Assembly (NCBI GenBank): GCA_012522415.1
Contig: JAAYKM010000051.1
Span: 9,371 to 73,370 of the forward strand
Direction: 5' to 3'
DNA: 64,000 nucleotides
Origin: Deltaproteobacteria bacterium
GTDB taxonomy: Bacteria; Desulfobacterota; Syntrophia; Syntrophales; JAAYKM01
Each line of letters starts with the position of its first letter. Position 1 is the first letter of the stretch. The translations under genes and the position numbers were made by a program. The notes beneath the pieces were generated by a model, which was not told the DNA's origin, did not search any database, and saw nothing but the letters and a program-made list of their open reading frames with translations. Shown in pieces: positions 5,825 through 63,965 of the stretch.

Positions 5825-5842
5825 CCCTTTATCGACTTACCG

Positions 5843-5873: not shown

Positions 5874-5891
5874 GTACGGATGGAAAAGAAC

Positions 5892-6556: not shown

Positions 6557-6557
6557 A

Positions 6558-6598
6558 AGAAAGCCCCCCGGTAGTTTATTACGACCGGGGGGCTTTCT
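6558..6598 (-). terminator. Strong hairpin downstream of the 1149-aa gene
   Basis: Perfect 15-bp stem agaaagccccccggt (6558-6572) / accggggggctttct (6584-6598) with an 11-nt loop. On the minus strand it is followed by the T-rich cttgtttc. It starts 22 nt after the stop codon. Confidence 0.7.
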
Positions 6599-6619
6599 AA
6601 TTCAGATATTAAACCCTTC

Positions 6620-10069: not shown

Positions 10070-10077
10070 AATTCCTC

Positions 10078-11841: not shown

Positions 11842-12320
11842 TCAGCCTCCTTCTTCTTGTACTCTTTCATAACTTTGCGAACCTTGTCCGTGGAGAGTTT
11901 CCCATAGACTTTTTCCCCAACCATGATGACGGGGGCCAGGCTACAGCATCCCAGACAAGCCACCGACTCGACGGTAAACAGCATATCCGGCGTCGTCTCT
12001 CCCGACTTGACATTCAGCGCACCCTCAATGGCTTCGGTAAGGCCGTCGGCATTCTGAACATGACAGGCCGTCCCATGACAGACACGAACCAGGTTTTTTC
12101 CGACGGGCGTCAGGCGGAATTGGGCGTAAAAAGTGACAATTCCATAAATGCTGGCGGTTGAAACTCCCATACTTCTGGCAACACGTTCCAGAGCTTCCTT
12201 TTCCAGGTAGCCCTTGTGCGCCTGAACCTGCTGAAGCACGGTGATGAGCGTTCCCTTATGGCCCCTGTAACGCTCCAGTACCTCATCGACATAACTAAAA
12301 TCCAGTTGTTCCATTTTCAA
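11838..12320 (-). CDS. NuoE/HydC-like thioredoxin-fold 2Fe-2S subunit
   Basis: 160 aa with CHGTACHV ... CLGCCSLAPV. It overlaps the NuoF-like gene by 4 nt. Confidence 0.9.
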   Translation of the reverse strand: MKMEQLDFSYVDEVLERYRGHKGTLITVLQQVQAHKGYLEKEALERVARSMGVSTASIYGIVTFYAQFRLTPVGKNLVRVCHGTACHVQNADGLTEAIEGALNVKSGETTPDMLFTVESVACLGCCSLAPVIMVGEKVYGKLSTDKVRKVMKEYKKKEAE

Positions 12321-12708
12321 CTCCTTGGAAGAAGACTCAACGCCACCGTGAAACCCGACACGGAGAAGCAGAGACCCGTACGGAACGGGTATCCGCCTTT
12401 ACCTGAACGAAGGCGTTTTCTCGAAGACGCTTATCAAACGATTACGGTGGAAAGTCGCCTAACCACCATAGGCCGGGGGGAGAAACTTGAATTGGGTACC
12501 ACCCGACATTCTATGTATAAAAGGGCATTCAGCGATCATGGCGGACAGTTACCTGTGTTTTCAATGATGAGAATACCTTTCAATCGCGGCGACATATACT
12601 AAAAAGGCGGGTGAAGGTCAAGGAGAAAAAACGGAACGGGAGAGGCAAAATGGACGTCTCTTCCACACCTAAGGTCCTGTATTTTCGGCTGTTTTATCAG
12701 GGGCTATG

Positions 12709-14718
12709 CTATACCAGACGCTCCGCCACAATCTCCGCAATATCCTTTACGACAATCTGTCCGGAAGCATTTTCGTCCTTCAGTCCGTCCTCAAACATGG
12801 TCATACAGTACGGACACGCCACACTGATCACTTCCGCATCCGTTGCCAGGGCATCTTTTGTCCGTTCGACATAAATTCGGCTTCCCTGATTTTCCTCGAG
12901 CCACATGCGGCCGCCGCCTGCGCCACAACAGAAACTCTCCGAACCGTGGCGGCTCATTTCTACAGGCGCCTTTCCGCCGCAGACCCTGGCGATGATCGCT
13001 CTCGGCTCCTTGTAGATATTGTTATAACGTCCGAGATAGCATGGATCATGGTACGTGACGCGCATCCCCGTTTCCCCTTTCAGTTTGAGTACGCCGCTCT
13101 GCAGGAGCTTGTGAATGAGTTGGGAATGGTGGATCACCTCGAAATCGACGCCGTACTGCCCGTAATCGTTTTTCAATGTACTGAAACAATGAGGACAGTA
13201 GGTGATGATTTTTTTGATCCCGTACTTTTTGAAGATTTCTATATTGTCCCTCACCAGGATATCGAAAACATATTCGTTCCCCAGTCTCCGCAGAGAATCG
13301 CCACAGCATTTCTCCTCATTACCCAGCACACCCCAGGAAAGACGGGCGGCGTTGAGGATCTTCGCCACAGCCGTCGTCACCATCCTGCCCCTTGGATCAA
13401 AGGATCCCGAACAGCCCACATAGAAGAGATACTCGACTTGGGCGCCATGTGAAAGGATCTTGATGTCCCGGTCATGGACCCACTTTTCCCGTTCATTCGG
13501 TGCGATTCCCCAGGGATTGAATCGCTGTTCCGAATTTTCGAAAAAAGCGATCAATTCTTCCGGGAAGGCAGCCTTTTCCACAACCAGATGACGCCGGAGC
13601 CCAATCAGTTTCGGTACATGTTCGATAAAAACAGGACACTGCTGCATGCAGGCCCCGCATGTCGTACAGGACCAGATGGCATCAACCGAAATGCTTTCGT
13701 CACGCGTATTGATAAGCGGAACAGCCATCTCGGCCGAATCGGGAGCGGAAACAAGCGTGTCCGGGGGTCTGGAAGCAAGCAGAATCCGGCCATTGGCCAA
13801 GAGATTGAGTTTTCCCTCATGAACAACCTCCTTGGGATTCAGGGGTTTGTGCGTGTTATGGGCGGGGCAGGCCGCCTGGCACCGGCCGCACTCCGTGCAG
13901 GACAGGAAATCCAGCAGGTCCTTCCATGAATATTGGACTATCTTTGAAACGCCAAAGCGTTCCCCGCGACGAAAGATCATCCGGGGAACGGTATTTACAA
14001 ATGAGGCATTCCTGAAAAAGATATTCGGTATCGCCGTCAGGATATGCAAATGTTTGCTGTAGGGCAGATAATTGAGGAAAAACAAGAGTACCAGGGCATG
14101 AGTCCACCAGAATATCCGTCCCAGGGCATGGCCCCCTTCCTGGGTCAGTCCCCGGAAGAGAGGCGCCAGGAGAGAAGAAACCGGCATGGTCCAGCGGGAA
14201 ATCGCTTTTCCGTTCAACCGGATTTCGCTGGCATGATAACCGAAGTAGGCAACTATTAGAACGGCAACCAGACCCAAAATCACAAAGGCATCCACTGTCT
14301 GGTCGATATAGGCGGGACGGAAGAACATCCGCCGAATAACGGCGTTGAAAACGCATACCAGCACCACAACCGACATGATATCGGCCATGAAGAGCATGGC
14401 CCCATAGGGGATATCTCCCAAAAACCAGAAGGAGAAGCGGGGGAAGACACCTGAGACCAGAAACTCCACATTCATCAGAAGGAGAAACATGAAACCCCAG
14501 AACAGAAGCAGGTGGTTCACGCCGAATCCTTCACTTACAACACGAACCTGGGCGAAGCCATACACCAGCATACCCCGGAATCGCGACCAGAGACGATCAA
14601 AACGATTCTCACTCCGCCCGAGGCAGATCATGGCAAAGAGGCGGTACAGGTTGCGCAAAAAGAAACCCACCGCACCGACAAGAATGAACAGGAACAACAA
14701 GGATTCGACGGAACTCAA
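12709..14718 (-). CDS. Membrane FeS oxidoreductase: N-terminal NarI/DsrM-like polytopic domain, 2x[4Fe-4S], and two CCG (HdrD/GlpC-like) domains; putative Etf:menaquinone oxidoreductase
   Basis: 669 aa. The first ~230 aa are hydrophobic helices carrying His residues (NHLLLFWG, WWTHALV, SKHLHILTA). These are followed by CTECGRCQAACP and CTTCGACMQQCP, then the Cys-rich CCGDS, CPHCF, DPCYLGR, FCCGAGGG and CPYCMTM. TTG start with GGAG SD. Confidence 0.85.
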   Translation of the reverse strand: MSSVESLLFLFILVGAVGFFLRNLYRLFAMICLGRSENRFDRLWSRFRGMLVYGFAQVRVVSEGFGVNHLLLFWGFMFLLLMNVEFLVSGVFPRFSFWFLGDIPYGAMLFMADIMSVVVLVCVFNAVIRRMFFRPAYIDQTVDAFVILGLVAVLIVAYFGYHASEIRLNGKAISRWTMPVSSLLAPLFRGLTQEGGHALGRIFWWTHALVLLFFLNYLPYSKHLHILTAIPNIFFRNASFVNTVPRMIFRRGERFGVSKIVQYSWKDLLDFLSCTECGRCQAACPAHNTHKPLNPKEVVHEGKLNLLANGRILLASRPPDTLVSAPDSAEMAVPLINTRDESISVDAIWSCTTCGACMQQCPVFIEHVPKLIGLRRHLVVEKAAFPEELIAFFENSEQRFNPWGIAPNEREKWVHDRDIKILSHGAQVEYLFYVGCSGSFDPRGRMVTTAVAKILNAARLSWGVLGNEEKCCGDSLRRLGNEYVFDILVRDNIEIFKKYGIKKIITYCPHCFSTLKNDYGQYGVDFEVIHHSQLIHKLLQSGVLKLKGETGMRVTYHDPCYLGRYNNIYKEPRAIIARVCGGKAPVEMSRHGSESFCCGAGGGRMWLEENQGSRIYVERTKDALATDAEVISVACPYCMTMFEDGLKDENASGQIVVKDIAEIVAERLV

Positions 14719-14779
14719 GGGAACTCCTTTCTATTTACCGGTAAAGCCTCATGACGATTTTCACGACACCTTTTGTCTT

Positions 14780-16177
14780 CTACGGACCTGTAACCTGTCC
14801 GGGCTGTTTTTCCAGATCCAGCCAGAACAGATTCGAGATGTCCGATGAGACCGGGTGTGCCCAGCTCGTGTGCAATTTATCGATCAGAGCGGGGAGGATT
14901 TCGAAAACATCCCCGACGATGCCCAAATGGGCAACCTGAAAGATCGGCGCATTGCGGTCTGTGTTTATCGCAATGATATGCTCCGAATCCTGCATCCCAA
15001 CCAGGTGTTGAATCGCCCCGGAAATCGCGCAGGCAATGTAGAGTTTGGGACGAACGGTTTTCCCCGTCTGGCCGACTTGACGTTCATGGGGCATCCAGCC
15101 GGCATCCACAGCGCTGCGCGAAGAGGCCACCACACCCCCCAGAAGATCTGCCAGATCGTACAGTATCTTGAAATTCTCCGCGTTCTGAAAACCCCGGCCA
15201 CCGCTGACAATCACATTGGCCACCGAAATATCGATGGCGCCCTCAGTTTTCAGGGGAATGATCTCCAGCACGGCGCTGTTCAGAAGATCGGTCTGCAACC
15301 CGAAGGGTTCCGTCATGACAGGCCCCGTTCGACCGGGGTGTACATCCGGCTTCGGCATCACGTGGGGACGGACGGAAGCCATCTGGGGGCGTGCCGTTTC
15401 CGTTAGAATCGTCGCCATGATGTTGCCCCCGAATGCTGGGCGCGTCTGCTCCAGAAGCCGGCGGCTCTTGTCGATCGCCAGACCCGTACAGTCCGCGGTC
15501 AGTCCCGTCTGCAACTCCGTGGCAATGGCTCCCGCCAGATCACGCCCCAACCCCGTTGCCCCAATCAATATCACTTCCGGTTTGTATTTCCGAATCAGGG
15601 TCAAGGCCCCGTGCAGATAGGGCTCCGTACGATAGTGTTCCAGAAGCGGATCCTCTGTCATAAAAACAACGTCGGCCCCGTACGCAAAAGCCTCATCCGC
15701 CAGATGTTTGATGTTCGAACCGAGAACGAACGCAGACAATTGGACCTGCAAGTCCCTGGCAAGGGTCCGACCCGCGCCGAGAAGTTCCCAGGACACCGAA
15801 TGGGCCTTGCCTTCGGCCTGTTCCACAAACACCCAGACACCTCTCCAGGCATCGAGAGACGATTCCGTTTTCTCCGTCATCGATGCCGAGGCATCCTCGT
15901 CTTCAACCGGCTCACTGTGCTCAGCACTCCCCTTGTCGAGTTCTTCCAGCAACCTCTGCTCCTCCGGAGTAAAAGCCATCCGAAGCGCCTCCGCCGGGCA
16001 AACCTTGACACATTTCGCGCAGCCGATACACTTGTCCGTCAGAATGATGGGCTCATCCTTTTCGTTCATTTCTATGGCATCCACCTTGCAGGCCGCTTGG
16101 CAGCGGGCTCCGCATGCAATACACTTTCCGGGGATCAATTCAGCCTTGCCGCGGGGTCTCTTGACTTTTTTTTCCAT
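14780..16177 (-). CDS. Electron transfer flavoprotein large subunit (EtfA/FixB type) with a fused N-terminal 2x[4Fe-4S] ferredoxin domain
   Basis: Ferredoxin domain motifs are CIACGARCQAAC (CX2CX3CX3C) and CIGCAKCVKVCP, followed by an acidic linker. The Etf alpha fold follows with TRPAFGGNIMATI and SGAIQHLVGM. The ATG at 16177 is preceded by GGAG; the track start at 16183 is a GTG. Confidence 0.85.
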   Translation of the reverse strand: MEKKVKRPRGKAELIPGKCIACGARCQAACKVDAIEMNEKDEPIILTDKCIGCAKCVKVCPAEALRMAFTPEEQRLLEELDKGSAEHSEPVEDEDASASMTEKTESSLDAWRGVWVFVEQAEGKAHSVSWELLGAGRTLARDLQVQLSAFVLGSNIKHLADEAFAYGADVVFMTEDPLLEHYRTEPYLHGALTLIRKYKPEVILIGATGLGRDLAGAIATELQTGLTADCTGLAIDKSRRLLEQTRPAFGGNIMATILTETARPQMASVRPHVMPKPDVHPGRTGPVMTEPFGLQTDLLNSAVLEIIPLKTEGAIDISVANVIVSGGRGFQNAENFKILYDLADLLGGVVASSRSAVDAGWMPHERQVGQTGKTVRPKLYIACAISGAIQHLVGMQDSEHIIAINTDRNAPIFQVAHLGIVGDVFEILPALIDKLHTSWAHPVSSDISNLFWLDLEKQPGQVTGP

Positions 16178-16264
16178 CGTCACTCCTAAAAAATCGGCCC
16201 ATGAGGGGACATAGGCAGGATTTGCAAACCGGCAAATCCATGTTCAACAGTTCTCTTCGCTCCG

Positions 16265-17083
16265 TCAGTGCCCCAACGATATGAAATCCCAGTCCAGAAG
16301 CTTTTTGAAAACCATGTCCACCGCCCTGTCCATCTTTTCTCCCTCCCCATCGACGATCTCACCCTTGTCCCGCTGCGGGGCAAAAATCTTGCGCACCTGT
16401 GTCGGGGATCCTCTCAAGCCGATCATATCCGGATCCAGTTTCAGAACGTCATTCGTCCAGATCGGCACTTTTGCTTCCAGCGCCTCCAGACGCCCCGGGA
16501 CCGTTGGGTAACGGGGCACATTCACTTCGCGAACCACCGTAATCAATACAGGCAGCCTCGACTCGACGATCTCGTGCATTTCCTCGAGAACGCGCCGAAC
16601 AACAATGATCCGTTTTTCCTTGTGAATCTCCAGAATACGGTCCACCAACGTCAGTTGTGAATATTTCAGCCGACACGCAATTCCCGGTCCCACCTGGGCC
16701 GTGTCACCGTCGATCGTCTGTTTACCGCATAAAACGATATCCACCGGCTTTTGCCCGTCGAGCCTGCGGATCGCTTCCGACAAAACCAGACTTGTCGCCA
16801 ATGTATCGGCGCCCCCGAAGGCACGATCACTGAGCAATACGGCATCGTCTACACCAAGGGCCATGGCCTTTTTCAGAACCGCGTCCGCCGCGGGGGGACC
16901 CATCGAAATGGCTGTCACGCAGCCGCCATATTTTTCTTTCAAACGCAAGGCCTCTTCCACCGCATGATTGTCAAAAGGATTCGTAATAAACGGCACCCCT
17001 TCGCGGACCAGGGTGTTCGTTACAGGGTCGATGATCACCTGTGTTGTGTCCGGTACCATTTTCACACAGACAACATAATGCAT
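16265..17083 (-). CDS. Electron transfer flavoprotein small subunit (EtfB/FixA), bifurcating-type sequence signature
   Basis: 272 aa with VCVKMVPDT, DRAFGGADTLATS, CGKQTIDGDTAQVGP and GSPTQV. From memory these match Acidaminococcus/Clostridium bifurcating EtfB rather than canonical ETF-beta. Confidence 0.85.
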   Translation of the reverse strand: MHYVVCVKMVPDTTQVIIDPVTNTLVREGVPFITNPFDNHAVEEALRLKEKYGGCVTAISMGPPAADAVLKKAMALGVDDAVLLSDRAFGGADTLATSLVLSEAIRRLDGQKPVDIVLCGKQTIDGDTAQVGPGIACRLKYSQLTLVDRILEIHKEKRIIVVRRVLEEMHEIVESRLPVLITVVREVNVPRYPTVPGRLEALEAKVPIWTNDVLKLDPDMIGLRGSPTQVRKIFAPQRDKGEIVDGEGEKMDRAVDMVFKKLLDWDFISLGH

Positions 17084-17260
17084 GGTTCTCTCCCGTTCGA
17101 TTTTATTTTGACGCGACCATCACGGCGTTTCGGCATCATATTCGTACAAACAAATAAATTTTTCAAATACATTTGATGGGGGATGGCACACCGCCGAATT
17201 CAATGCGCCGGAGGATTGTTCAAGAGAGGATTTTCCAAGCCGGATCCTTTATTGCCTATG

Positions 17261-17290
17261 AAAAAGGCCGGGATCGTTCGATCCCGGCCT
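17261..17290 (-). terminator. Rho-independent terminator of ppsA
   Basis: aggccgggatcg / cgatcccggcct palindrome (17265-17290). On the minus strand it is followed by TTTTT (plus-strand A-run 17261-17265). Confidence 0.8.
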
Positions 17291-17323
17291 CCCTCACATC
17301 ATATGCCTTGCAGCCGATAATTC

Positions 17324-19735
17324 CTAGGCTTTCCCTAATTTTCGTTCCGCATCCAATATTTCCGCGGTGGTCTTGAGTACCGTATCGGAGTTGAGGGATA
17401 TGCTGTTGATGCCGTATTCGACCAGAAGTCTCGCCACTTCGGGGTAATCACTGGGTGCCTGACCACAGATACCGATTTTTTTACCGATTTTTCTTGCCTT
17501 GCTTATGGCCATCCTGATCAGTTCCTGCACGGCGGCGTCCCGTTCGTCGAAAATGTGGGCCACTTCTGCGGAATCACGGTCCAACCCCAACGTCAGCTGG
17601 GTCAGGTCATTGGAGCCAATGGAGAAGCCGTCGAATATTTCCCCGAATTCTTCAAGCATGATCACGTTGCTGGGAATCTCCACCATCATATAAATTTCAA
17701 GACCATTCTCGCCCTGGACCAGGCCCCGGTCAGCCATGGTTCGGACAACCTTCCCGGCTTCCGTCAACGTCCGGCAAAAAGGGATCATCAACTTGACATT
17801 GGTGAGCCCCATGACGTCCCGCACACGCTTCATGGCATCACATTCCATAAAGAAACCATCTCTATAGCGGTCATCGTAGTAGCGGGAAGCACCCCGGAAA
17901 CCGATCATCGGGTTTTCCTCGACGGGTTCAAAGAAAGAACCACCGACGAGGTTATAATATTCGTTGCTCTTGAAATCACTCATACGCACGATCACGTCAT
18001 TCGGGTAGAAGGCGGCACCGATCTTGGCCACCCCTTGCGCCAGACGGTCGATAAAAAACTCTCTCCGGTCCGCATATCCTCTCGTAATTCTGTCAATTTC
18101 CGCACGAACAGCTTCGTCCGTCACCTGGTTGAAATTGACGAGGGCCATGGGATGAACACTGATGAAATGGCTGATGATGAACTCCAGGCGAGCCAGACCT
18201 ATGCCGTCATTTGGTATGGAGGCAAGGGAAAAAGCATTTTCCGGATTGCCGACATTCATCATGATCTTCGTGGATGGGCGCTTGAGCGTGGTGACGTTAA
18301 CCCGGTTCACATCATATTTCAGAATGCCTTCGTATACCCTTCCCACTTCACCCTCGGCACAGGAAACGGTCACCTCCTTGACATTTTTCAAGACCTCCGT
18401 ACCGTTTTCCGTACCCACAATACAGGGGACCCCAAGTTCACGGCTTACAATCGCCGCATGGCAGGTTCTGCCTCCCCGATCGGTCACAATGGCTGCGGCG
18501 ATCTTCATGATGGGCTCCCAGTCAGGATCGGTCATTTCAGTCACCAGGACCTCGCCCGCTTTGAAAGTCTTGATCTCCTTTACCGATTCGATGATGTGCA
18601 CCGGCCCTGCGCCAATCCTGGAGCCGACACTGGTTCCGAGCAGAATGGGCGTTTTTTCTTCACAGAGAACATAATTTTCGAGGACACTCCCGTCCTTTTG
18701 GGATTGCACGGTTTCAGGCCTCGCCTGCAGGATGAAAAGTTCCTGGGTGATACCGTCCTTGCCCCACTCGATATCCATGGGTTTGAAATAACCCGCCTTT
18801 TCTGAATAATGTCCTTCAATGATGGCGGTCCATTGGCCCAGTTTCAGGACCTCGTCATCGCTCAGGCAAAAATTGTGGCGATCCTCTTCGGGCACCGGGA
18901 CAATCTCCGTTGCGCTCTCCTTTTTGGAATCGGAGTAGATCATCTTGATCTCCTTGGTCCCCAGTTTCTTCTGGATAATGGAACGGAAACCTTCCTTCAG
19001 GGTCGGTTTAAAGACATAAAATTCATCAGGATTGACGATCCCCTGAACGACGGTCTCCCCCAAACCATAGGAAGCGGTAACCAGAATTGCCTCCTTGAAA
19101 CCCGATTCGGTGTCGATAGAAAAGATAACCCCCGAGGCCCCCTGATCCGAGCGAACCATCTTTTGTACCCCAATGGATAAAGCGATAGTCAGATGATCGA
19201 AACCCTTATCCACCCGGTAGGAAATCGCCCGATCCGTAAACAGGGAAGCGAAACACCTCTTGCACGCATCAATCAGGGCGTCCTCGCCCCGGACGTTCAG
19301 GAATGTCTCCTGCTGGCCGGCAAAACTCGCGTCGGGCAGATCCTCCGCCGTGGCGGAACTGCGGACGGCGACATCCGTATCCGGTCCGTACTCTTCACAC
19401 AGGCGCTTATATCCCTTCAAAACTTCATTACGGAGATCATCGGGAAATTTCGCGCTATAAATCAGGGACCGGATCTGCTCGCCTTTACTTCGCAAATTAT
19501 CCAGGTCGTGTGTGTCCAGATCCTTCAGAACATTTTTGATTTCCTTGCCGATTCCCGCGGATTCCAGCAGATATCGATAGGCCGCGGCGGTTACGGCAAA
19601 TCCATCGGGTACGCTCACCCCCTTGGAAGTCAACTCTCTTCTCATCTCGCCGAGGGATGCATTTTTGCCCCCTACCTGTGGAATATCCTTCAATTCTATC
19701 TCATCGAACCACAAAATCAGTTGCTCATCCATCAT
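17324..19735 (-). CDS. ppsA: Phosphoenolpyruvate synthase (pyruvate, water dikinase)
   Basis: GGKNASLGEM, the phospho-His motif TDRGGRTCHAAIVSRELGVPCIVG, and the C-terminal PEP-utilising domain GICGQAPSD. The ATG at 19735 has a GGAGG SD 6 nt upstream. The track start at 19819 adds 28 non-conserved aa. Confidence 0.95.
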   Translation of the reverse strand: MMDEQLILWFDEIELKDIPQVGGKNASLGEMRRELTSKGVSVPDGFAVTAAAYRYLLESAGIGKEIKNVLKDLDTHDLDNLRSKGEQIRSLIYSAKFPDDLRNEVLKGYKRLCEEYGPDTDVAVRSSATAEDLPDASFAGQQETFLNVRGEDALIDACKRCFASLFTDRAISYRVDKGFDHLTIALSIGVQKMVRSDQGASGVIFSIDTESGFKEAILVTASYGLGETVVQGIVNPDEFYVFKPTLKEGFRSIIQKKLGTKEIKMIYSDSKKESATEIVPVPEEDRHNFCLSDDEVLKLGQWTAIIEGHYSEKAGYFKPMDIEWGKDGITQELFILQARPETVQSQKDGSVLENYVLCEEKTPILLGTSVGSRIGAGPVHIIESVKEIKTFKAGEVLVTEMTDPDWEPIMKIAAAIVTDRGGRTCHAAIVSRELGVPCIVGTENGTEVLKNVKEVTVSCAEGEVGRVYEGILKYDVNRVNVTTLKRPSTKIMMNVGNPENAFSLASIPNDGIGLARLEFIISHFISVHPMALVNFNQVTDEAVRAEIDRITRGYADRREFFIDRLAQGVAKIGAAFYPNDVIVRMSDFKSNEYYNLVGGSFFEPVEENPMIGFRGASRYYDDRYRDGFFMECDAMKRVRDVMGLTNVKLMIPFCRTLTEAGKVVRTMADRGLVQGENGLEIYMMVEIPSNVIMLEEFGEIFDGFSIGSNDLTQLTLGLDRDSAEVAHIFDERDAAVQELIRMAISKARKIGKKIGICGQAPSDYPEVARLLVEYGINSISLNSDTVLKTTAEILDAERKLGKA

Positions 19736-19873
19736 CGGTTTCCTCCTAAGCTGGTTGGAATCGGATCTCCATGCATTTTGGTGATCCCGTGTATCAGTTT
19801 TACCCACAACAGTCAACAAAATATCCTCTAAATGGCGGCACCAATTAACAAATTACTCTTTACCTTCAGTGGC

Positions 19874-20728
19874 TTACATCCTTTGTGAAAAATCCAGACG
19901 TACGGGCAGACTCCCGGACACTTCAAGAACAGGTCCGTTCATCATGAACTGTACACCGCCGGCCTCCACCCTGGTTTCCTCACCGTCCATAACCCATTCA
20001 TACAGTTTTTTCGCGTCATTCAGAACCGGTTCGGCAGGAACCTTGTAGACACGGTTCTGCATTTCTTCATCAAACAGCCCGACGCAACCGTGAGATGCAG
20101 GCCGCCCCGGCATATCCCGAGCGTGAATCCAGTATCCCGTATCATCGGGAGAGACATAAAAACGGATGGCATAGTCCATGGGATATTTTGATTTGCCGTC
20201 AGCCGTATCATAAAGAGACGATCGATGGTGCCTGTCGAGTGCGTCCACACGGAAAATACCGGGAGGCGTTTCATGTTTCGCCTTTCCTGTAACGGCGGGC
20301 ATGGAAAACTTCTGTTTCCCGTATTCGTATGCCCCGATCCACTGTTCCGTCACATCAATAAGGATGTATTTTCGAAAGGGCTTCGCTTTTCCGTACATTT
20401 CCGGCAGCGGTGTGTAATGTTCAATGTCTTCGAGATTGAGAGGCACCTTGATGGTCATGCCCGGATAGGCGTGACGGCGGTCAAGGCGGTTGAAACGGGC
20501 CACCCAAACCCATCGGTTACCAAAGAGCCGCTCCAGGCTTTCGTCGGGGAGGATGAAATGGGGACGCCAGGGGATATTCTTCAAACTCGGATAAACAATG
20601 CGTCCCAGGTCTTCCATGGCCGAATCCTCGGGAAGCGGGCCGGGAAGAGAGATAAGCCGCGGGTTGTATGCAATGATGACGCACATGAGGAGGATAGCCA
20701 GGGTCAAACGAACGGACAATTGTGGCAT
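19874..20728 (-). CDS. L,D-transpeptidase (YkuD/ErfK family) with an N-terminal membrane anchor
   Basis: 284 aa. The catalytic motif is WIHARDMPGRPASHGCVGL. The N-terminus is hydrophobic (LTLAILLMCVIIAY). Confidence 0.8.
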   Translation of the reverse strand: MPQLSVRLTLAILLMCVIIAYNPRLISLPGPLPEDSAMEDLGRIVYPSLKNIPWRPHFILPDESLERLFGNRWVWVARFNRLDRRHAYPGMTIKVPLNLEDIEHYTPLPEMYGKAKPFRKYILIDVTEQWIGAYEYGKQKFSMPAVTGKAKHETPPGIFRVDALDRHHRSSLYDTADGKSKYPMDYAIRFYVSPDDTGYWIHARDMPGRPASHGCVGLFDEEMQNRVYKVPAEPVLNDAKKLYEWVMDGEETRVEAGGVQFMMNGPVLEVSGSLPVRLDFSQRM

Positions 20729-21172
20729 GCTTATCTTTCAACAGAAATTTTGTTGAGCTTATACCATTTCCCCTCCCCGGATTCAATGGTTTTGGCATGA
20801 TGTGCCTGCCGATCTGCCCTTACAAAACAGGCCGTCAGCCCCCGATCATGACGACCTGCAACGAATGAAGGGATACCTGCCGAATTTTGGCGACGCCTAC
20901 CCGTCGTTTCAGACCCGACAACGGTCAGCACACGCCGGGGCACCGAAAAACAAGGCAAGGGGAGATCACAAGAATTTTTGGCAATTGATCCCACATGGGC
21001 ATCCATGATAGAGGTGCCGTATGGGTTAAAAGATATGTTATGAATTGACTGGAAACGAAAACAAAACAGGCGGAATATCTGTCGAAAAAATACCTTGAAT
21101 TTGATAGGTGCCTCTCCGGTCGGCATCGGACGCATCCCACGGAAGATCAGGAGGATTGAAGAGGATAAAATT

Positions 21173-23287
21173 ATGACTAAAAGCAATAACGGCGAAGGCT
21201 CCCTGCACGAGATCTTTGGTTCCAGTGTGTTCAGTGACGCCATCATGAAGGAGCACTTGCCGAAACCAACCTACCAGGCCCTGAAAAAAACGATCGATGA
21301 AGGACTTGATCTCGATCCTGCCGTGGCGGATGTTGTGGCCATCGCCATGATGGGTTGGGCCATCGAAAAGGGAGCGACCCATTTTACCCACTGGTTTCAG
21401 CCCATGACCGGCATCACGGCAGAGAAACACGACGCCTTTATCTCGCCAACCCCCGAAGGCAAGGTAATCCTGGAGTTCTCCGGGAAGGAACTGATCAAGG
21501 GTGAACCGGACGCCTCTTCCTTCCCCTCCGGCGGGATGCGGGCCACTTTTGAAGCCCGGGGCTACACCGCCTGGGATTGTACATCCCCCGCTTTCGTCAA
21601 AGATGGAAGTCTCTGTATTCCGACTGCTTTTTGTTCCTACACCGGAGAAGCTTTGGACAAAAAAACCCCCTTGCTGCGTTCCATGGAAGCCCTTTCCAAA
21701 CAGGCTCTTCGCGTCTTGAAACTCTTCGACAACAAAAGCGCCTCCAAAGTCATCACCACGGTCGGACCGGAACAGGAATATTTTCTGATCGACAAACGAA
21801 TGTACGACCTGAGAAAGGATCTGATTTTCACGGGAAGAACGCTTTTCGGCGCCAAGCCGCCAAAGGGTCAGGAAATGGGAGATCATTACTTCGGCAGCCT
21901 GAAGGAACGCATCTCCGCTTTCATGAAGGAGCTGGATCAGGAACTCTGGAAACTCGGTGTCGCCGCCAAAACAAAACACAACGAGGTTGCACCGGCACAA
22001 CATGAGCTGGCGCCAATTTTTACCACCGCCAATATCGCGACGGACCACAATCAGCTTACCATGGAAATGATGAAGAAAATCGCGTTAAGGCACGGCCTGG
22101 TCTGTCTGTTGCACGAGAAACCGTTTGCCGGCGTGAACGGCTCGGGGAAACACGTCAACTGGTCCATGGCGACGGATGACGGCCAGAATCTGCTCGAGCC
22201 CGGATATACACCGCATGAGAATGCCCAATTCCTTGTGTATTTGTGCGCCGTGATCAAGGGCGTTGATGAATATGCCGACTTGCTCCGGGCCTCGGCCGCG
22301 ACGGCGGGCAATGAGCACCGCCTCGGAACCCATGAAGCACCACCTGCCATTGTCTCGGTCTATCTGGGAAAACAATTGACCGATATTCTGGAACAGATCG
22401 CGGGTGGCGGAACGACCAACTCCAGCCAGGATGGCCTGTTGAAAATCGGAGTCACGACCCTGCCGGATTTACCGAAGGATTCCACGGACAGAAACCGAAC
22501 CTCCCCTTTTGCTTTTACAGGGAACAAATTTGAATTCAGAATGGTGGGATCCTCGGCGTCCACAGCGACGGCCAGCTTCGTCCTGAACACCATTGTGGCG
22601 GATATGCTTAAACAGATTGCGGACCGCCTGGAACAGGCCAAGGATTTTCAGGACGAGGTCCAGAAACTGCTGCAGGAAATCGTAAAAAACCACAAAAAGA
22701 TCATTTTCAACGGCAACAGCGACTCCGACGCCTGGGTTCAAGAAACGAAAAAAAGAGGACTCCCCAACATCACGTCCACTGTGGCGGCCATCCGGACCAT
22801 GATTTCGGATAAAAACATCGCGCTTTTTGAAGAACACCATATACTGACCCGGCACGAGATAGAATCCCGCTGCGAAATCAACTTTGAAAACTACATGAAG
22901 GCCATCAACATCGAGGCCCTGACAATGCTCGAAATGGCAAAGCGGCAAATCCTTCCTGCCGTGATTGAATACACCACCATGCTGGCGGATTCCATCAACA
23001 CCATTAAAACGACAGGTATCAAGGCCGATATATCGGTGCAGGAAGAATTGTTGACGGAGGTCTCCACCCTGACAGCCACATTCCGAAACGACACCGTCGC
23101 CCTCGAAAAGACGCTGGCGCAGGCCGCGGACATATGCGGCGACACCTTCGGTCGGGCCTGTTTTTACCGGGATCAGGTTTTTGTGAAAATGGGAAAACTC
23201 AGGGAAACCGGCGATAAACTGGAAACAATGGTGGGTGAGGTTTACTGGCCCCTGCCGACTTACGGCGACCTGCTTTTCAACGTCTGA
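21173..23287 (+). CDS. glnN: Glutamine synthetase type III
   Basis: About 704 aa from the ATG at 21173 (AGGAGG/GAGGA upstream). [27 protein letters not shown] and overall GSIII length. The track start at 21095 adds 26 aa. Confidence 0.9.
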
Positions 23288-42839: not shown

Positions 42840-45008
42840 CTATTCCAGTCCCATCGCTTCCCAGACGATTTCGGCGATATCCCGGGCCGTCATGCTCTCT
42901 TCCTTGTTGCGGTCCTTGATGCCGTCGCTCATCATGGTCAGGCAGAACGGGCATCCAACGGCGATCGTGTCGGCCCCTGCGGCAATTGCGTGATCCGTCC
43001 GCATATCATTGATGCGTTCACCGATATCCTCCTCCATCCACATGCGAGCCCCCCCCGCGCCGCAGCAGAAGCTCCGGGCCAGGTTGCGGTCCATCTCCGT
43101 GATCCTCATGCCGGGTACGGCCTTGAGGATCCGGCGGGGCTGATCGTAAATGTCGTTGTACCGGCCGAGGAAACAGGAATCGTGATACGTGAAGCTCCCT
43201 TCCACGGGTTTTTTCAGGGTGATTCTACCCTTCGCAATCAGATCCGCAATGATCTCCGAATGATGGTAGACCTCATAGTTCCCACCGAAATGGGGGTAAT
43301 CCTTCTTCAGGGCGTTATAGCCGTGGGGACAGGTGGCGATGATCTTCTTCACATCGTAGCCCGCCATGGTTTCGATGTTCATCTGGGCCATGGTCTGGTA
43401 GAGGTACTCGTTCCCGCCGCGCATGGCCGAATCGCCGCAGCACCCCTCTTCCGTACCCAGGATGGCAAAGCTGACACCCGCCGCCTGAAGGATCTTCGCG
43501 AAAGCCACGGTCACCTTCTTACCCCGGTCATCGAACGAGCCCGAACAGCCGACGTAGAAGAGGTATTCCACATTCCGGTCTTCCGCCAGGGTCTTGACAC
43601 CCAGATCCGCCGCCCAGTCGGCTCGCAAATGGGCGCCGATACCCCAGGGGTTGCTGTTGTTTTCCATGTTCCGGAAGGTCAGCTGGAGTTCCGGCGCGAA
43701 ATCCGCCTCCATCAGAACCTTGTACTGGCGCATGCCGACCACCTTCGGCACATGTTCGATGTCGGCAGGACAGTGCTCCATACAGTACATGCAGTTCGTA
43801 CAGGCCCACAGTTCATGGAGATCGATCTGCTCCCCGACCAGGGCTTTTTCTCCCCCGGCGGCGGGTTTCAGACCGTCCACAAAATTGTCCACCCTTTCCA
43901 GCCATCGACAGAAGAAACCCTGTTTGGGAGAGGTCTTGGGATTCCCCTCCCCATCGGTTTCCACAACCGCCTTCCTTTCCGCAATCGCCTCCGGGGCCTT
44001 CTCCAACCAGTAATTCTTTATATCCTGGGTCAGTTTTTTCGGCGACAGGGGCTTGCCCGACAGGTAGGCGGGGCAGCCGTCCTGACAGCGCCCGCACTCG
44101 GTGCAGGCGTCACCGTCGAAGATCTGTTTCCACGTAAAATCCTGAATCTGTCCGGCGCCGAAAGACTCGGCGTTTTCAAAATCCCGGATCGGCTCGATCT
44201 GGCCGACGGGCAGCATGGTCTTCATGTACTGATTGGCCGGGGTCGTATAAATGTGCAGCAACCTCGAGTAGGGGATGTAGGCGATGAAGCCGAGAGACAT
44301 GAAAGCATGAATCCACCAGGTCCACTTGTGCATGGCCTTCGCCGTTCCCAACTCGACGCCGGCGAACATTTTCGACACCCCGTAACCGACAACGGACCAG
44401 ATTTCCCAGGGGGGTTTGGTCACATGGATACGCAAAGCCTCGATGATAAACCCCGTCAGGATGATCGCCACCAGCAGCAGTAGAACAATGGCGTCATCGG
44501 GCCCGCTGTCCGGTTTGCCCCTGTAACCCAAACGGTCCGGTTTGGCCAGGTAGCGCCGGTCGATGGCCATGAGCGCACCCACAAGGACACACACACCGAA
44601 AATTTCCATGATCAGGGAGAAGATCAGATAAAAATTACCCCGAAGAAAAGCCCATCCAAGAGGTTCCGTGATATGAAATTCCGTGGCGTCGAACGCGGCG
44701 CCCCAGATCAGGACGAAGAAACCAAAAAAGATAAGGCCGTGCATGACGCCGGGATAGAGTTCCTTCGAGGTGTTGGCCTGTAAAACGACATTCTTCAGCA
44801 GGTATTTGAGCCGTTCGCCGCGGTTTTCGAACCGATTTTCCGGTTCCGCCTTCCCGACGGCTTTCCACATGCGCCAGCGCCGGTAAAAGCCGTAAGCCAT
44901 AATCGCCAGGGCGATGGCCGTAAAGAAAAAGAGTACGGGTTCAAAATAATCCGCGTTCCAGAATACCTGTCTCCCCTCGTTTCCGACGGAAAAGGTTGTA
45001 TGTTCCAT
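42840..45008 (-). CDS. Membrane FeS oxidoreductase (NarI-like domain, 2x[4Fe-4S], two CCG domains); paralogue of 12709-14718
   Basis: 722 aa. The N-terminus is hydrophobic with His residues (GVMHGLIFFG, WWIHAFMSLGFIAYIPYSRLLHIYTTP). It then has CTECGRCQDGCP, CTNCMYCMEHCP, CCGDSAMRGGNEY, CPHGYN, DSCFLGR, FCCGAGGARMW and CPFCLTM. It is adjacent to etfAB. Confidence 0.9.
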   Translation of the reverse strand: MEHTTFSVGNEGRQVFWNADYFEPVLFFFTAIALAIMAYGFYRRWRMWKAVGKAEPENRFENRGERLKYLLKNVVLQANTSKELYPGVMHGLIFFGFFVLIWGAAFDATEFHITEPLGWAFLRGNFYLIFSLIMEIFGVCVLVGALMAIDRRYLAKPDRLGYRGKPDSGPDDAIVLLLLVAIILTGFIIEALRIHVTKPPWEIWSVVGYGVSKMFAGVELGTAKAMHKWTWWIHAFMSLGFIAYIPYSRLLHIYTTPANQYMKTMLPVGQIEPIRDFENAESFGAGQIQDFTWKQIFDGDACTECGRCQDGCPAYLSGKPLSPKKLTQDIKNYWLEKAPEAIAERKAVVETDGEGNPKTSPKQGFFCRWLERVDNFVDGLKPAAGGEKALVGEQIDLHELWACTNCMYCMEHCPADIEHVPKVVGMRQYKVLMEADFAPELQLTFRNMENNSNPWGIGAHLRADWAADLGVKTLAEDRNVEYLFYVGCSGSFDDRGKKVTVAFAKILQAAGVSFAILGTEEGCCGDSAMRGGNEYLYQTMAQMNIETMAGYDVKKIIATCPHGYNALKKDYPHFGGNYEVYHHSEIIADLIAKGRITLKKPVEGSFTYHDSCFLGRYNDIYDQPRRILKAVPGMRITEMDRNLARSFCCGAGGARMWMEEDIGERINDMRTDHAIAAGADTIAVGCPFCLTMMSDGIKDRNKEESMTARDIAEIVWEAMGLE

Positions 45009-59309: not shown

Positions 59310-59507
59310 TCAGGTGTTTCGTCTTCGCTGCACCTTCGCCAGCCTCCGGCGGGCTTCGATGGTTTTCCGCTTCCTTTTCACGGAGGGTTTCTCATAGGCC
59401 CGTCGGACTTTCAATTCCTTGAACAGGCCGCTCTTCGAAAGCTTGTTTTTCAAAATTTTCAGCGCTTTCTCCACGTCGTTGTCGAATACTTTTACTTCCA
59501 AAATCAT
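59310..59507 (-). CDS. rpsU: 30S ribosomal protein S21
   Basis: 65 aa: VKVFDNDVEKALKILKNKLSKSGLFKELKVRRAYEKPSVKRKRK. Confidence 0.95.
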   Translation of the reverse strand: MILEVKVFDNDVEKALKILKNKLSKSGLFKELKVRRAYEKPSVKRKRKTIEARRRLAKVQRRRNT

Positions 59508-59619: not shown

Positions 59620-62600
59620 CTATCGGATCTCGTGATGGTACTCCTGAATCGTTTTCACCGCGGGCTCACCCTTTTTGAGCGTTTTGATGGCGTTGACCGC
59701 CGCCTGAGCGCCCGGAAGGGTCGTCACCAGGGGAACACTGTGAAAGACCGCCGTGGACCGTATGATGGCCGTATCCTCCCTGGTTTTCTTTCCAGCGGAG
59801 GTATTGATGATCATAGCGATTTCACGATTTTTCATCAGGTCGATGACGTTAGGCCGCCCCTCGTATATCTTCGGCAGAACCGTCACGGTGATGTCGTTGT
59901 TCTTCAGCACCGCCGCCGTACCGCCCGTGGCGACGATCGAAAAACCGAGATGCTCCAGCTCTTTGGCCAGAAAGACGATCTGACGCTTGTCCTTGTTGTT
60001 GACGCTGAGGAAGACCGTTCCGGATGCGGGCAGTATGGTCCCCGCTGCTATTTGGGATTTTGCAAATGCCATACCAAATGTTTTGTCGATGCCCATGACC
60101 TCACCGGTGGACTTCATTTCCGGCCCTAAAATGGCATCCACGCCGGGGAACCGCGAAAAGGGGAAAACCGATTCCTTCACGGCAAGATGTTTCACATTGA
60201 CTTCCTTCGTAAAACCCAGTTCCCTGAGGGTTTTCCCCGCCATGATTTTCGTTGCCAGCTTCGCCAGGGGAATGCCCGTCACCTTACTGACAAAGGGAAC
60301 GGTCCGGGAAGCCCGGGGATTGACTTCGAGAACGTAGATGATGTCGTTACGGATGGCGTACTGGATGTTCATCAACCCCCGGACGTTGAGTTCCCTGGCA
60401 AGGGCATAGGTATTTTCCTTGATGACGCCGGCCAGTTTGGCATCCAGAGTATAGGGCGGCATGACGGAGGCGCTGTCTCCCGAGTGAATTCCCGCTTCCT
60501 CGATGTGTTCCAGGAGCCCGCCGATAACGGTCGTTTCACCATCGGAGATGGCGTCCACGTCGATTTCGATCGCATCCTCGAGGAATTTATCGATCAGGAT
60601 GGGATGTTCCGGGGAAACACGTATGGCCTTTTTCATAAACTCTTCCAGAGCCTCATCGTCATAGACGATTTCCATCGCCCGTCCGCCCAGGACATAGGAC
60701 GGCCGCACAACGACGGGATAGCCGATCTTGTTGGCCACCTTTTCCGCCTCGGCAAAGGAACGGGCCGTTCCGTTCTCCGGTTGGATCAGGCCGAGTTTCT
60801 TCAGGAGCACCTGGAAGCGTTTCCGGTCCTCCGCCCGGTCGATACTGTCCGGGGTCGTCCCCCAGATAGGCACACCCGCCTTCTCCAGAGGTACGGCAAG
60901 ATTCAGAGGCGTCTGTCCACCGAACTGGACAATCACGCCATCGGGTTTCTCCAGATGGATGATGTTGAGCACATCCTCACGTGTCAGGGGCTCGAAGTAG
61001 AGTTTGTCTGACGTGTCGTAATCGGTGCTGACCGTTTCCGGATTGCTGTTGACCATGATGCTCTCGTAACCGAGTTCACGGAGCGCCAGAGACGCATGCA
61101 CACAACAGTAATCGAACTCGATTCCCTGCCCTATCCTGTTCGGGCCGCCCCCCAGGATGACCACCTTGGGCCGGGGGCCGCGCACACTTTCCTCCACGGA
61201 TTCATAGGATGAGTAGTAGTAGGGCTTTTCCGCTGCGAACTCGGCTGCGCAGGTATCGACAAGCTTGTACACGGGATGAAGGTTCTTCTTTTTTCGCAGA
61301 TCCTGAATCACCGTTTCCGTCGTACCGAGAATATGAGCCAGCTGGACATCGGAAAAACCGAAATCCTTGGCTCTCCGGAGTTGCTCGACAGGGAAATCGC
61401 GTTTCCAGGCGTTCAGATCCCGTTTTGCGCCCTGGAAACGGAATCCGCTCAATTCCACCTCCAAATCAAAGATTTCCTTCATGTTGAAGAGAAACCACCG
61501 GTCGATCCGACAGAGATCCTGTATCTCGTCAATCGTCAAGCCCATTTCAAACGCATGGCGGATGTAAAAAAAACGCTCCGCGTTGGGAACCCGCAGTTTT
61601 TCCCGAACACGCTCCAGGGGCTCATCACCCTGAAGCGGCCTGTCCTTCCCGTCGGCGCCAAAACCGAATCGGCCCGTCTCCAAAGAACGAAGCCCCTTTT
61701 GAAAGGCCTCCTTGAAATTCCGACCGATGGCCATGACCTCGCCCACGGCCTTCATGGAGGTGTTCAGGGTGGGGTCCGCCAGGGGGAATTTTTCGAAGGT
61801 AAATCTGGACATTTTAAAAACGCAATAATCCAAAGCCGGCTCGTACAGGGACGTGGTCTTTCCCGTAATGTCATTGTGCACCTCGTCAAGGGTAAAACCG
61901 ACGGCCAGCTTCGTCGCCACACGGGCAATGGGGAAACCCGTTGCCTTGGAGGCCAAGGCCGAACTTCGGGACAATCTGGGGTTGACCTCGATGATGACGA
62001 TTTCTCCGTTGTGGGGGTTCTGGGCAAACTGGATGTTGACGCCGCCACCCGCCACATCGATCTTGCGGATGATTTTTCGGCAAAGATCGGTAAACGTCCT
62101 GTACTCTTTCGCCGTCAGGGTCTGGGCCGGCGCAACGACGGCGCTGTCATCCGTATGAACGCCCATGGGGTCGATGTTCTCCATGGAGGTGACGATGATG
62201 ACATTGTCAGCGCAGTCCCGCATGACCTCAAACTCGATTTCTTTCCATCCGAGGACGGACTGTTCGACCAATAATTGGCCCACCGGGCTATATTCGATAC
62301 CCTTGGCGACAAAATCCTCCAACTCCTCCTTGTTATAGACGATGGAGCCACCCGTCCCGCCGAGGGTAAAGGCGGGCCGCAGAATCAGGGGAAATCCGAT
62401 TCGAAGCCCGATTTCCATGCCTTCCTCCAGAGTCCTGGCAATCCCGCTTTCTGGAAGGCCGATTCCAATCTCCCCCATAGCCTGTTTGAACAGATCCCGG
62501 TCTTCCGCCCGGGCTATCGCCTCGGCACTGGAACCCAGCACCTCGACGTTATACTTCGTGAACACCCCGGCCCGCGCCAGAAACACGGCCGTGTTCAAAC

Positions 62601-62892
62601 CGGTCTGACCACCCAGGGTAGGAAGAACCGCGTCGGGCCTTTCCCGCTCGATGATCTTCTCGACAATGGCCGGCGTAATGGGCTCGATGTAGGTCCGGTC
62701 GGCCATGTCCGGATCCGTCATGATCGTCGCCGGATTGCTGTTGACCAGAATAACGTAATAACCTTCCTCTTTCAGGGCCTTGCAGGCCTGTGATCCGGAA
62801 TAGTCGAATTCGCAGGCCTGGCCGATGACAATGGGCCCGGACCCGATGATCAATATTTTCTTTAAATCTTCCCGTTTCGGCATGTTCGTCAA
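59620..62892 (-). CDS. carB: Carbamoyl-phosphate synthase large subunit
   Basis: 1090 aa with duplicated ATP-grasp halves ([21 protein letters not shown] / [20 protein letters not shown]) and a C-terminal MGS-like domain. Confidence 0.97.
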
Positions 62893-63965
62893 TCCCGTTT
62901 CCGATTTTTTTCCATGATACGTAGAAACCGGCCTAATACGCCGCTGGGCCCGCCTTCCTCGTCCGGCCGGGGAACAAATTGCACTCCCAAAACACCCAGG
63001 GGGGCGGATGAGATGCCCTCCACGGTTCCATCGTTGACATTGATGTGAGACACCTTGAATTCCTTCAGAAAATCCGGCCCGGCCGTCATGACAAAACTGT
63101 GGTTCTGGTCCGTAATGGCAACCGCTTGAGTCTCCATGTCCCGAACCGCATAATTACAACCGTGATGGCCGACTTTCATAGGGTTCACCTGCCCACCTGC
63201 AGCGAGACAGATCAACTGGGCTCCCAGACCGATACCCAGGATCGGCACCCACCCGATCGCTTGCCCGATTTCCGACGTGACAGCCTCCGCGCGGCGTGGG
63301 TCTCCCGGCCCACTGGAAACGACGAGCCCATCGGGATCAAGTCTCCGGATTTCCTCCCAGGAAGTGGATGGGCCGGCTACAACAAGCTCACATCCACATT
63401 GCCGCAACTGGTCGAAGGTGCTCCTTTTTACCCCCAAGTCATAAAGAACGGTCCGGTATCCCCCCGTGCCCTTAAAGGCCTTCAGCGTCTTTTTCCCCGA
63501 GACGATTTTCGGCGGCTTCCATGTTTTCAGGCGGTCCAGCAGGTTACCCACGGAGGTGGCCGCGGGACCGATAATCCCCTTCATCTCCCCATGCTCCCGA
63601 ATGTGAAGAGAGAGCGCACGGGTATCGACTTGCTCCATGCCGACAACCTTACCCGCCCGCATCGTGTTTTCCAGGGTGTCCGTCGCCCGCCAGTTGCTGA
63701 CGATCCGGCTTTTTTCCTTAATGATGAGTCCCTGAACGTGAAGACGATCCGACTCGGCATCCTCGTCGTTTGTTCCGTAGTTGCCTATCAGAGGATAGGT
63801 CATGTTGATCAGACATCCCGCGTTGTCGGGATCCGTCAGGACCTCCTGATACCCGACGATCCGGTGGTCGTCATGGACCCAGCCACAGGCCTCCCCGGCC
63901 GCGCCGAAGGAAACACCCCGAAAAACCGCGCCGTCTTCCAGAACCAATACCATGTCCATACGCAA
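62889..63965 (-). CDS. carA: Carbamoyl-phosphate synthase small subunit homologue with all three glutaminase triad residues substituted
   Basis: 358 aa. The CarA N-domain has [20 protein letters not shown] and [10 protein letters not shown]. The GATase domain reads [10 protein letters not shown] where GICLGHQL is expected, and VQFVPRPDE where FQxHPE is expected. It overlaps carB by 4 nt. Confidence 0.9.

Follow-up and report, generated by a model that had tools for sequence, protein, structure and literature searches.

Near the end of a stretch of DNA of 64,000 nucleotides (nt) from a Deltaproteobacteria bacterium (Syntrophales; JAAYKM01), which covers positions 9,371-73,370 of the forward strand of contig JAAYKM010000051.1 in assembly GCA_012522415.1 and is called the window from here on, the small subunit of carbamoyl-phosphate synthetase (CPS) is encoded by a carA gene that has lost the catalytic Cys and His of the glutaminase, and the large subunit is encoded by a full-length carB gene with changes at the ammonia tunnel. 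Genes and proteins of this variant lineage are marked with an asterisk, i.e., carA*/CarA* for the small subunit and carB*/CarB* for the large subunit. Our reading of the pair, to which we would give a probability of roughly 0.6, is that CarA* is a catalytically dead pseudo-glutaminase within a distinct two-subunit lineage of bacterial CPS, and that the holoenzyme would use free ammonia.

Glutaminase residues of CarA*

The gene carA* lies at 62889-63965 on the minus strand. Its product would be 358 amino acids (aa) long if translation started at the TTG at 63965; a 356-aa product starting from the ATG at 63957-63959, the start chosen by the gene callers in three other assemblies, is more likely. 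The original prediction for this gene had described it as a CarA homologue that aligns with Escherichia coli CarA, and the domain and structure comparisons bear this out. The product matches the Pfam domain CPSase_sm_chain (PF00988, 2.1e-39) followed by GATase (PF00117, 6.3e-30), and its AlphaFold2 (AF2) model, with a mean predicted local distance difference test score (pLDDT) of 90.6 and a predicted template modeling (TM) score (pTM) of 0.91, superimposes on E. coli CPS small subunits (1jdb, 1m6v) with a TM score of ~0.9, with the N-terminal moiety of human CPS1 ranking below them. Against TIGR01368, the equivalog model for the glutamine-hydrolysing small subunit, CarA* scores 303.8, which is below the cut-off of 307.35. 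Against the broader model NF009475 it scores 300.7, above the cut-off of 221, which explains the GenBank names beginning "glutamine-hydrolyzing" on relatives of CarA*.

The loss of the catalytic residues was read directly from the codons. In the nucleophile elbow, the canonical GICLGHQ has become GIGLGAQ, with Gly246 (GGT, 63228-63230, minus strand) at the position of E. coli Cys269, a placement on which an HMMER alignment to PDB entry 1bxr_B and four independent multiple alignments agree. Further along the protein, Val331-Pro332-Arg333 (62967-62975, minus strand), within the segment 'VQFVPRPDE', stands at His353-Pro354-Glu355, with Val331 encoded by GTT at 62973-62975 and Arg333 by CGG at 62967-62969. 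Position 353 is not occupied by a His in any of the alignments, and the 15-residue segment of CarA* aligned there is entirely free of His. The replacements of Cys by Gly and of His by Val had both been predicted, and both are exact at the level of the codon. For the third residue, the predicted change of Glu to Arg named the correct codon, but its equivalence to Glu355 depends on the alignment, the counterpart being Arg333 in two multiple alignments, Asp335 when HMMER aligns the two proteins pairwise and Glu336 once a larger multiple alignment is used, so that the claim of an entirely replaced triad is safe for Cys and His only. The pairwise HMMER register, which sets Arg at His353 and Asp at Glu355, was considered and dropped in favor of the register of the multiple alignments; the E. 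coli motif 'SFQGHPE' is itself atypical when compared with the usual 'SVQ[FY]HPE'. The E. coli CarA sequence used as the reference matches the MG1655 record except for the start codon. Going by the loss of Cys and His, CarA* is unable to run the Cys-His-Glu mechanism of the class I amidotransferases, just as had been proposed.

The changes in CarA* extend to other elements around the old active site and the tunnel. The segment 'PDEEGGP' (62946-62966, minus strand) takes the place of the canonical 'ASPGPHD' loop, where one of the multiple alignments has a four-residue deletion that removes or remodels the tunnel-lining Gly359. One of the structural matches to the CarA* model, PDB 1m6v, is the G359F tunnel-blocking mutant. 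Toward the N-terminus, residues 28-35, 'GWVHDDHR' (63861-63884, minus strand), replace the canonical 'GEVVFNTS' at E. coli positions 29-35; this replacement is specific to the Syntrophales group and adjoins Ser35/Met36, which we take to be tunnel residues. Shortly thereafter, 'TDPDN' (63822-63836, minus strand) replaces 'TDPSY' and puts Asp at position 47, which is Ser in 129/129 canonical CarA sequences and which we take to be a glutamine-contacting position. In their longer form, the Syntrophales-specific segments 'CGWVHDDHR' and 'TDPDN..C' carry extra conserved Cys, His, Asp and Trp when set against the canonical 'GEVVFNTS' and 'TDPSY..Q', and the other variant groups are without them. The sites that separate variant from canonical CarA are Asn33, Asn240, Cys269, Lys285, Gly359 and Asp362.

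It is scarcely credible that the triad codons were missequenced or that carA* is a decaying gene, and we ruled out both on the ratio of nonsynonymous to synonymous substitution rates (dN/dS) and on independent assemblies with the same residues. It is true that the Gly codon GGT is one base away from the Cys codon TGT; the change from His to Val, on the other hand, takes two base changes, and the same locus with the same triad residues is present in three other, independent assemblies of a 99.07%-identical strain, as well as in an ENA contig (P0001) whose product is 100% identical to CarA* over 99% of its length. Sequencing error at these codons, which the original prediction had itself named as a weakness, is answered by these copies. 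A survey of relatives, likewise proposed at that time, finds the loss of the triad in five GTDB Syntrophales species representatives (L001-L005) and in about 24 protein clusters of 49-100% identity. Among these relatives the nucleophile column reads G/A/S/C and the His column I/T/V/N/A, which is the drift expected of positions released from catalytic constraint. The open reading frame (ORF) is nevertheless intact in six Syntrophales species and full length in more than 20 relatives, its AF2 model is confident, and its dN/dS by the method of Nei and Gojobori (NG86) is ~0.15 (0.12-0.16 overall; 0.05-0.10 in the N-terminal domain, 0.12-0.22 in the GATase domain and 0.19-0.44 in the linker). For carB* the same method gives 0.03-0.08. 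What could be taken as a sign of decay is the rate: where CarB* proteins of the clade are 90-94% identical, their CarA* partners are only 67-76% identical, compared with 81-95% for the CarA proteins of canonical pairs at equal CarB identity, which puts the pace of CarA* at three to four times what its CarB* partner predicts. Between strains, carA* shows 7 nonsynonymous and 4 synonymous differences and carB* shows 2 and 16 (Fisher p = 0.010). CarA* is maintained by purifying selection, yet it evolves faster than a working CarA, and such relaxed constraint is as expected once catalysis has been lost.

Tunnel-site signature of CarB* and the variant lineage

The large subunit differs from canonical CarB at a small number of sites. 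A first alignment of the window CarB* and those of L001-L005 against 37 canonical CarBs showed clade-specific changes at invariant or nearly invariant positions. An unbiased scan over all 1073 E. coli CarB positions, in which 37 canonical sequences were compared to 129 variant sequences, returned just eight separating sites: 232, 258, 262, 265, 304, 321, 360 and 540. Position 232 is Cys in all of the canonical sequences (37/37) and Thr in all of the variant ones (129/129). At the remaining sites, the canonical residue gives way to Ala/Gly/Arg/Ser (Asp258), Ala/Ser/Lys/Thr (Gln262), Val/Thr/Ala/Glu (Arg265), Leu (Val304), Arg (Lys321), Cys/Ser/Ala (Pro360) and Lys/Arg/Gln (Thr540). Cys232, Ala251 and Ala314 make up the 'triangular gate' of the CPS ammonia tunnel (PMC8674909; PMC6241538; PMC4655335), and sites 258, 262 and 265, being spaced i, i+4, i+7, lie on one helix face. 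As mapped by alignment, the lineage-wide changes are confined to tunnel and interface elements.

In the window, the CarB* signature reads T/A/R/T/S/K at 232/258/262/265/360/540, plus L304 and R321, and the tunnel gate becomes Thr232/Ala251/Ala314. All of these codons are on the minus strand: Thr232 (ACC), at the position of the gate Cys232, lies at 62188-62190; the helix face Ala258/Arg262/Thr265, which replaces the near-invariant Asp258/Gln262/Arg265, lies at 62089-62112; and Leu304 (61972-61974), Arg321 (61921-61923), the Ser at E. coli position 360 (61807-61809) and the Lys at E. coli position 540 (61225-61227) together span 61225-61974. Every residue checked in the ATP sites, the catalytic machinery, and the ornithine and uridine monophosphate/inosine monophosphate (UMP/IMP) pockets is unchanged, with the identities of these residues being what we take them to be from the E. 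coli literature.

The gene carB* itself (59620-62883, minus strand) encodes 1087 aa from an ATG and matches the CarB equivalog model NF003671 with 1630.6 bits, so the intact carB that the original prediction had placed next to carA* is confirmed as full length and as keeping the checked catalytic and allosteric residues. The predicted ATGA overlap of the two genes, in contrast, did not hold. The junction reads TGA-CGAAC-ATG, with a 5-nt spacer between the carA* stop codon (62889-62891) and the carB* ATG (62881-62883); a TTGA overlap is possible solely with an upstream TTG start, and the N-terminus 'MPKRED' obtained from the ATG agrees with the N-termini of homologues. The two genes adjoin each other in the same orientation, and the same layout is found in L001-L005, L089-L091 and L093.

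In a simple neighbor-joining distance tree of 48 sequences, the variant CarBs form one clade with a bootstrap of 100/100; the window CarB* falls inside this clade, and canonical CarBs from Desulfobacterota and Syntrophales (L021, L029 and L056) fall apart from it. Every variant carB locus examined (13/13) pairs with a triad-less carA. Other triad-less carA loci were found in Planctomycetota (L082, L084 and L088), a Joint Genome Institute (JGI) contig (L083), Saganbacteria (L030) and Omnitrophota (L092), and each of them has a full-length carB with the variant CarB pattern directly downstream of carA. Of the 120 database sequences that match the window CarB* best, 119 carry the signature, with named sources that include Syntrophales, Deltaproteobacteria, Elusimicrobia and Omnitrophota. 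Judging from this shared signature, the locus is a member of a distinct, large, multi-phylum CPS lineage, with sequences labelled Syntrophales, Planctomycetota, Omnitrophota, Elusimicrobia and Saganbacteria, and CarA*/CarB* is not an isolated oddity of a single operon. The sole fully canonical signature (C/D/R/K/P/T) among the 120 closest CarB homologues belongs to P0424, an ENA contig of 3488 bp whose CarB is 73% identical to the window CarB*; among canonical sequences, this one may stand closest to the variant lineage.

How common the loss of the triad appears to be depends on the sample. Only 69 of the 150 best CarA cluster representatives at 50% identity keep Cys-His-Glu, and most of the others have Gly at the nucleophile, in a ranking that is biased toward the degenerate query; of 102 further sequences matched by a Planctomycetota-type profile, 101 have Gly and 1 has Ala at the nucleophile. 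Among 80 loci from GTDB genomes that had been selected by pattern, 74 are canonical. A Firmicutes-like arginine operon with the order argC, argB, argD, carA, carB, argF (L086, at 3640-13319, and L087) encodes a CarA with Cys replaced by Ala and His by Phe, and its protein is abundant, being present in 34 index blocks (24 contigs read). The CarB of L086 keeps the canonical signature, and we therefore excluded this CarA from the lineage; it represents a separate event, probably a recent one.

The Omnitrophota contig L092 (JGI Ga0265297_10000122) has a densely packed group of amidotransferase genes within positions 1-20000, in the order pyrG, a canonical carA, a half-size carB, a degenerate carA, a variant carB, purF, guaA, purL and purQ. 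The canonical carA (GICLGHQ / HPE) and the half-size carB (551 aa, N-terminal half only) lie at 1667-4394, and the degenerate carA and full-length variant carB lie at 8869-13270, 6 kb from the canonical carA. A half-size carB is also found beside a canonical carA at another Omnitrophota locus, L008. On the Planctomycetota contigs, a GMP-synthase ATP-pyrophosphatase (PF02540 + PF00958) of 311-313 aa that has no GATase domain is encoded just upstream of carA* (L082, 1950-2891; L084, 6993-7931; L085, 612-1550, a Logan copy of the L084 gene; and L088, 9011-9946). From its domain content, this GMP synthase may be a second amidotransferase that works without a fused glutaminase.

Nitrogen source, alternative readings and genomic setting

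The use of free ammonia by CarA*-CarB* is what we best infer from these sequences. The enzyme would make carbamoyl phosphate from free NH3/NH4+ and not from glutamine. CarA*, which keeps the CarA fold and the N-terminal domain that docks onto CarB, would be retained as part of the tunnel or of an entry path, stabilising or tuning CarB*, and the remodelled alpha355-361 loop together with the beta258-265 helix would be the point at which external ammonia enters or is re-routed. Purified bacterial CarB alone is active with ammonium, as PMC8121099 relates in citing Trotta 1971, and E. coli CPS with a blocked or perforated tunnel loses the use of glutamine and keeps the use of ammonia, in the account given in PMC4655335. 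We are doubtful of a more far-reaching version, under which the whole multi-phylum lineage would be obligately ammonia-dependent, with the dead CarA* acting as a module for ammonium capture and entry whose opening would lie at the junction of the alpha355-361 loop with the beta258-265 helix; among the Syntrophales sequences, the Trp/His/Asp/Asp/His patch of 'GWVHDDHR' at the tunnel mouth would recruit and deprotonate NH4+, and the enzyme would be a bacterial counterpart of CPS I arrived at by another structural route.

Several points weigh against the use of free ammonia by a dead CarA* and its partner. Human CPS I takes up external ammonia and yet keeps the gate Cys (PMC4655335), so the change of Cys232 to Thr is no known signature of ammonia use. 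The variant CarBs all belong to one clade, which makes the co-variation of CarA and CarB essentially one evolutionary event with no repeated convergence. E. coli CPS has a poor affinity for ammonia, and an efficient ammonia enzyme would need adaptations. The contig L092 carries both types, so the variant class can coexist with a glutamine-using system. Lastly, Gly241, Gly243, Gln273, Asn311 and His312, which we take to be glutamine-binding residues, are still conserved in the CarA* proteins of the Syntrophales group (group A), and a ligand could still be bound there.

The coexistence on L092 of a canonical carA and half-size carB with a variant pair is also the first point in favor of a different view of the physiology, possible in our opinion but clearly the weaker candidate, namely that the genome also has a canonical, glutamine-dependent carA, perhaps accompanied by a carB, and that the variant pair is a second CPS specialised for ammonium. 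In the tree, the variant CarBs group apart from the canonical CarBs of L021, L029 and L056, which makes them a lineage of their own and not the type that those samples inherited vertically, and a division of labor between CarAB and CarB2 has been proposed in Bacteroides thetaiotaomicron (PMC8121099), which provides a precedent. However, tblastn with CarA* found no second carA within the 64-kb window, itself apart, and none was found in the flanks of six related Syntrophales loci. The variant pair moreover sits in a conserved neighbourhood, with the gene order lplA, carA*, carB*, rpsU, LOG-family, holA, hbd, rpe, kdtA, hflX kept in the window, L001-L005, L089-L091 and the sister clade L093, and this is housekeeping synteny. 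The very strong purifying selection on carB* (dN/dS 0.03-0.08) and the retention of both the UMP/IMP and the ornithine pockets of a dual-purpose CPS likewise argue against a conditional second enzyme. This alternative concerns physiology only and is not in conflict with ammonia use by the variant enzyme.

The conserved pocket residues of group A lend themselves to another reading, which we consider unlikely, in which CarA* would bind glutamine or some other ligand without hydrolysing it and would tune CarB* allosterically, as a regulatory pseudoenzyme and more than a scaffold. Consistent with such a role, purifying selection acts on the GATase-like domain (dN/dS 0.12-0.22), and the E. coli mutants C269S and C269G (Rubino et al. 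1986; Mareya and Raushel 1994) reportedly still bind glutamine and thereby stimulate the ATPase of the large subunit. The pocket of the Syntrophales group is, however, altered by the changes Ser47 to Asp, Gly313 to Ser and His272 to Ala, and the conservation of the other pocket residues may be purely structural. Far less probable still is that CarA* releases ammonia from an amide, be it glutamine or a different one, through an unconventional mechanism, e.g., by way of the Cys/His/Asp-rich 'CGWVHDDHR' and 'DN..C' near the old active site. Within the Syntrophales group these new motifs are strongly conserved, as is Cys51, at positions near the E. coli tunnel mouth and glutamine site, but variant groups B, C and D lack the motifs while having the same dead triad and CarB signature; the nucleophile column is free to drift, and neither Pfam nor NCBIfam gave a match to a known hydrolase motif. 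Over all of these we prefer the reading of CarA* as a dead pseudo-glutaminase in an enzyme that would be fed by free ammonia.

As for the surroundings of the pair, rpsU (ribosomal protein S21, 65 aa) lies between carB* and the LOG-family gene at 59310-59507 on the minus strand of the window, where its length is under the ORF threshold used; it was called in L089-L091 and L093. The 543-nt intergenic region between lplA and carA*, which runs past the end of the window and was read from L090 (8383-8924), has no Rfam match at E <= 1. We also considered the in-situ replacement of a canonical carAB and set this aside: the canonical Syntrophales locus L056 has none of the neighbour genes of the window, and with no neighbours in common the synteny is silent on replacement.

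The rest of the window holds the gene set of a syntrophic fatty-acid oxidiser, including EtfAB and an Hdr-like iron-sulfur (FeS) oxidoreductase, acyl-CoA ligases, thiolase, crotonase and FadL, and it also encodes NuoF-like and formate-dehydrogenase-like complexes, phosphoenolpyruvate synthase and acetyl-CoA synthetase. An electron-transfer cluster at 6620-17083 (minus strand), typical of syntrophic fatty-acid oxidisers, encodes a 1149-aa protein that resembles a fusion of a GltD-like NADPH oxidoreductase with a NuoG/formate-dehydrogenase-like part, a NuoF-like protein, an Hdr/TfrB-like FeS protein, EtfA and EtfB; a second Hdr/TfrB-like gene is at 42840-45008. From this gene content, an ammonium-rich anaerobic niche is plausible. 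A 730-aa protein encoded at 21095-23287 on the plus strand matches GlnA (TIGR00653, 1e-16) only weakly and in its central part; its length points to a type III glutamine synthetase, and going by this protein, the organism probably still makes glutamine.

In the full-text literature searched, we found no description of a bacterial triad-less CarA, of an ammonia-dependent bacterial CarAB or of the CarB signature, with only CPS1 and the proposal for B. thetaiotaomicron CarB2 coming up, and the variant CPS lineage is apparently undescribed. One paper lists bacterial CPS only as the glutamine-using CPS II (PMC6022934), and another says that every eubacterial CPS known so far depends on glutamine, with the orphan Bacteroides CarB2 as the only proposed exception (PMC8121099). 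Should the lineage run on free ammonia, it would amount to a second, widespread solution beside the glutamine-dependent bacterial CPS, models of the flow of nitrogen into arginine and pyrimidines would change for anaerobic, ammonium-exposed microbes, and the GenBank name 'glutamine-hydrolyzing carbamoyl-phosphate synthase small subunit' on several relatives would be wrong. For enzymologists, the lineage offers a natural experiment on the design of ammonia tunnels; the two classes are told apart by just eight positions in CarB and a few in CarA, so that mutagenesis could address the question directly.

Comparison with known carbamoyl-phosphate synthetases

The closest likeness is to E. coli CarAB (CPS II type; 1JDB, 1BXR), with which the variant enzyme shares two subunits, the order carA-carB, the CarA fold (TM ~0.9), the match of CarB* to NF003671 (1630.6 bits) and the checked ATP, ornithine, UMP and IMP residues. 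Where it departs from E. coli CarAB is in the absence of Cys269 and His353, the remodelled Gly359 loop and the change of Ser47 to Asp in CarA*, and in the change of the gate Cys232 to Thr and the replacement of Asp258, Gln262, Arg265, Pro360 and Thr540 in CarB*. Engineered E. coli CPS mutants (C269S/G, the alphaG359F/Y tunnel block and a perforated tunnel) have lost glutamine-dependent synthesis and kept NH3-dependent synthesis, according to what PMC4655335 says of them (its refs 51, 53 and 54; PDB 1c30, 1m6v). The variant enzyme is altered at elements that were changed in these mutants, namely Cys269, the Gly359 loop and betaArg265, whereas the mutants are laboratory point mutants of a glutamine enzyme. 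The perforation mutant of Kim and Raushel 2004 is reportedly alphaP360A/alphaH361A/betaR265A.

The orphan CarB2 of B. thetaiotaomicron is a bacterial CPS that has been proposed to use ammonium directly (PMC8121099). CarB2 has no small subunit whatsoever, whereas in the variant lineage the dead small subunit is kept, conserved and translationally coupled to carB*.

The original prediction had drawn an analogy to mitochondrial CPS I (human CPS1; 5DOU, 5DOT), and this analogy stands in its functional part, in that CPS I, like CarA*, has an inactive glutaminase-like domain without the catalytic Cys; it fails at the tunnel gate, where CPS I keeps its Cys (Cys648) and CarB* has Thr. CPS I also keeps the His and Glu of the triad, and CarA* is without the His. 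CPS I uses ammonia drawn from solution, with changes in its ancestral tunnel and a different way in that has been proposed for it (PMC4655335); for CarA*-CarB*, ammonia from solution would be the probable source. The CPS I tunnel is blocked by a Gln at the position of E. coli alphaGly293, where CarA* has Cys. In its architecture, CPS I is a single fused polypeptide (~1500 aa) that depends on N-acetylglutamate, in contrast to the two genes carA* and carB*, which are separated by a stop codon and a 5-nt spacer. The similarity of CarA* to CPS1 (111.5 bits) is far below its similarity to E. coli CarA (~213 bits), so the loss of the catalytic Cys in the two enzymes is analogous and not homologous by descent.

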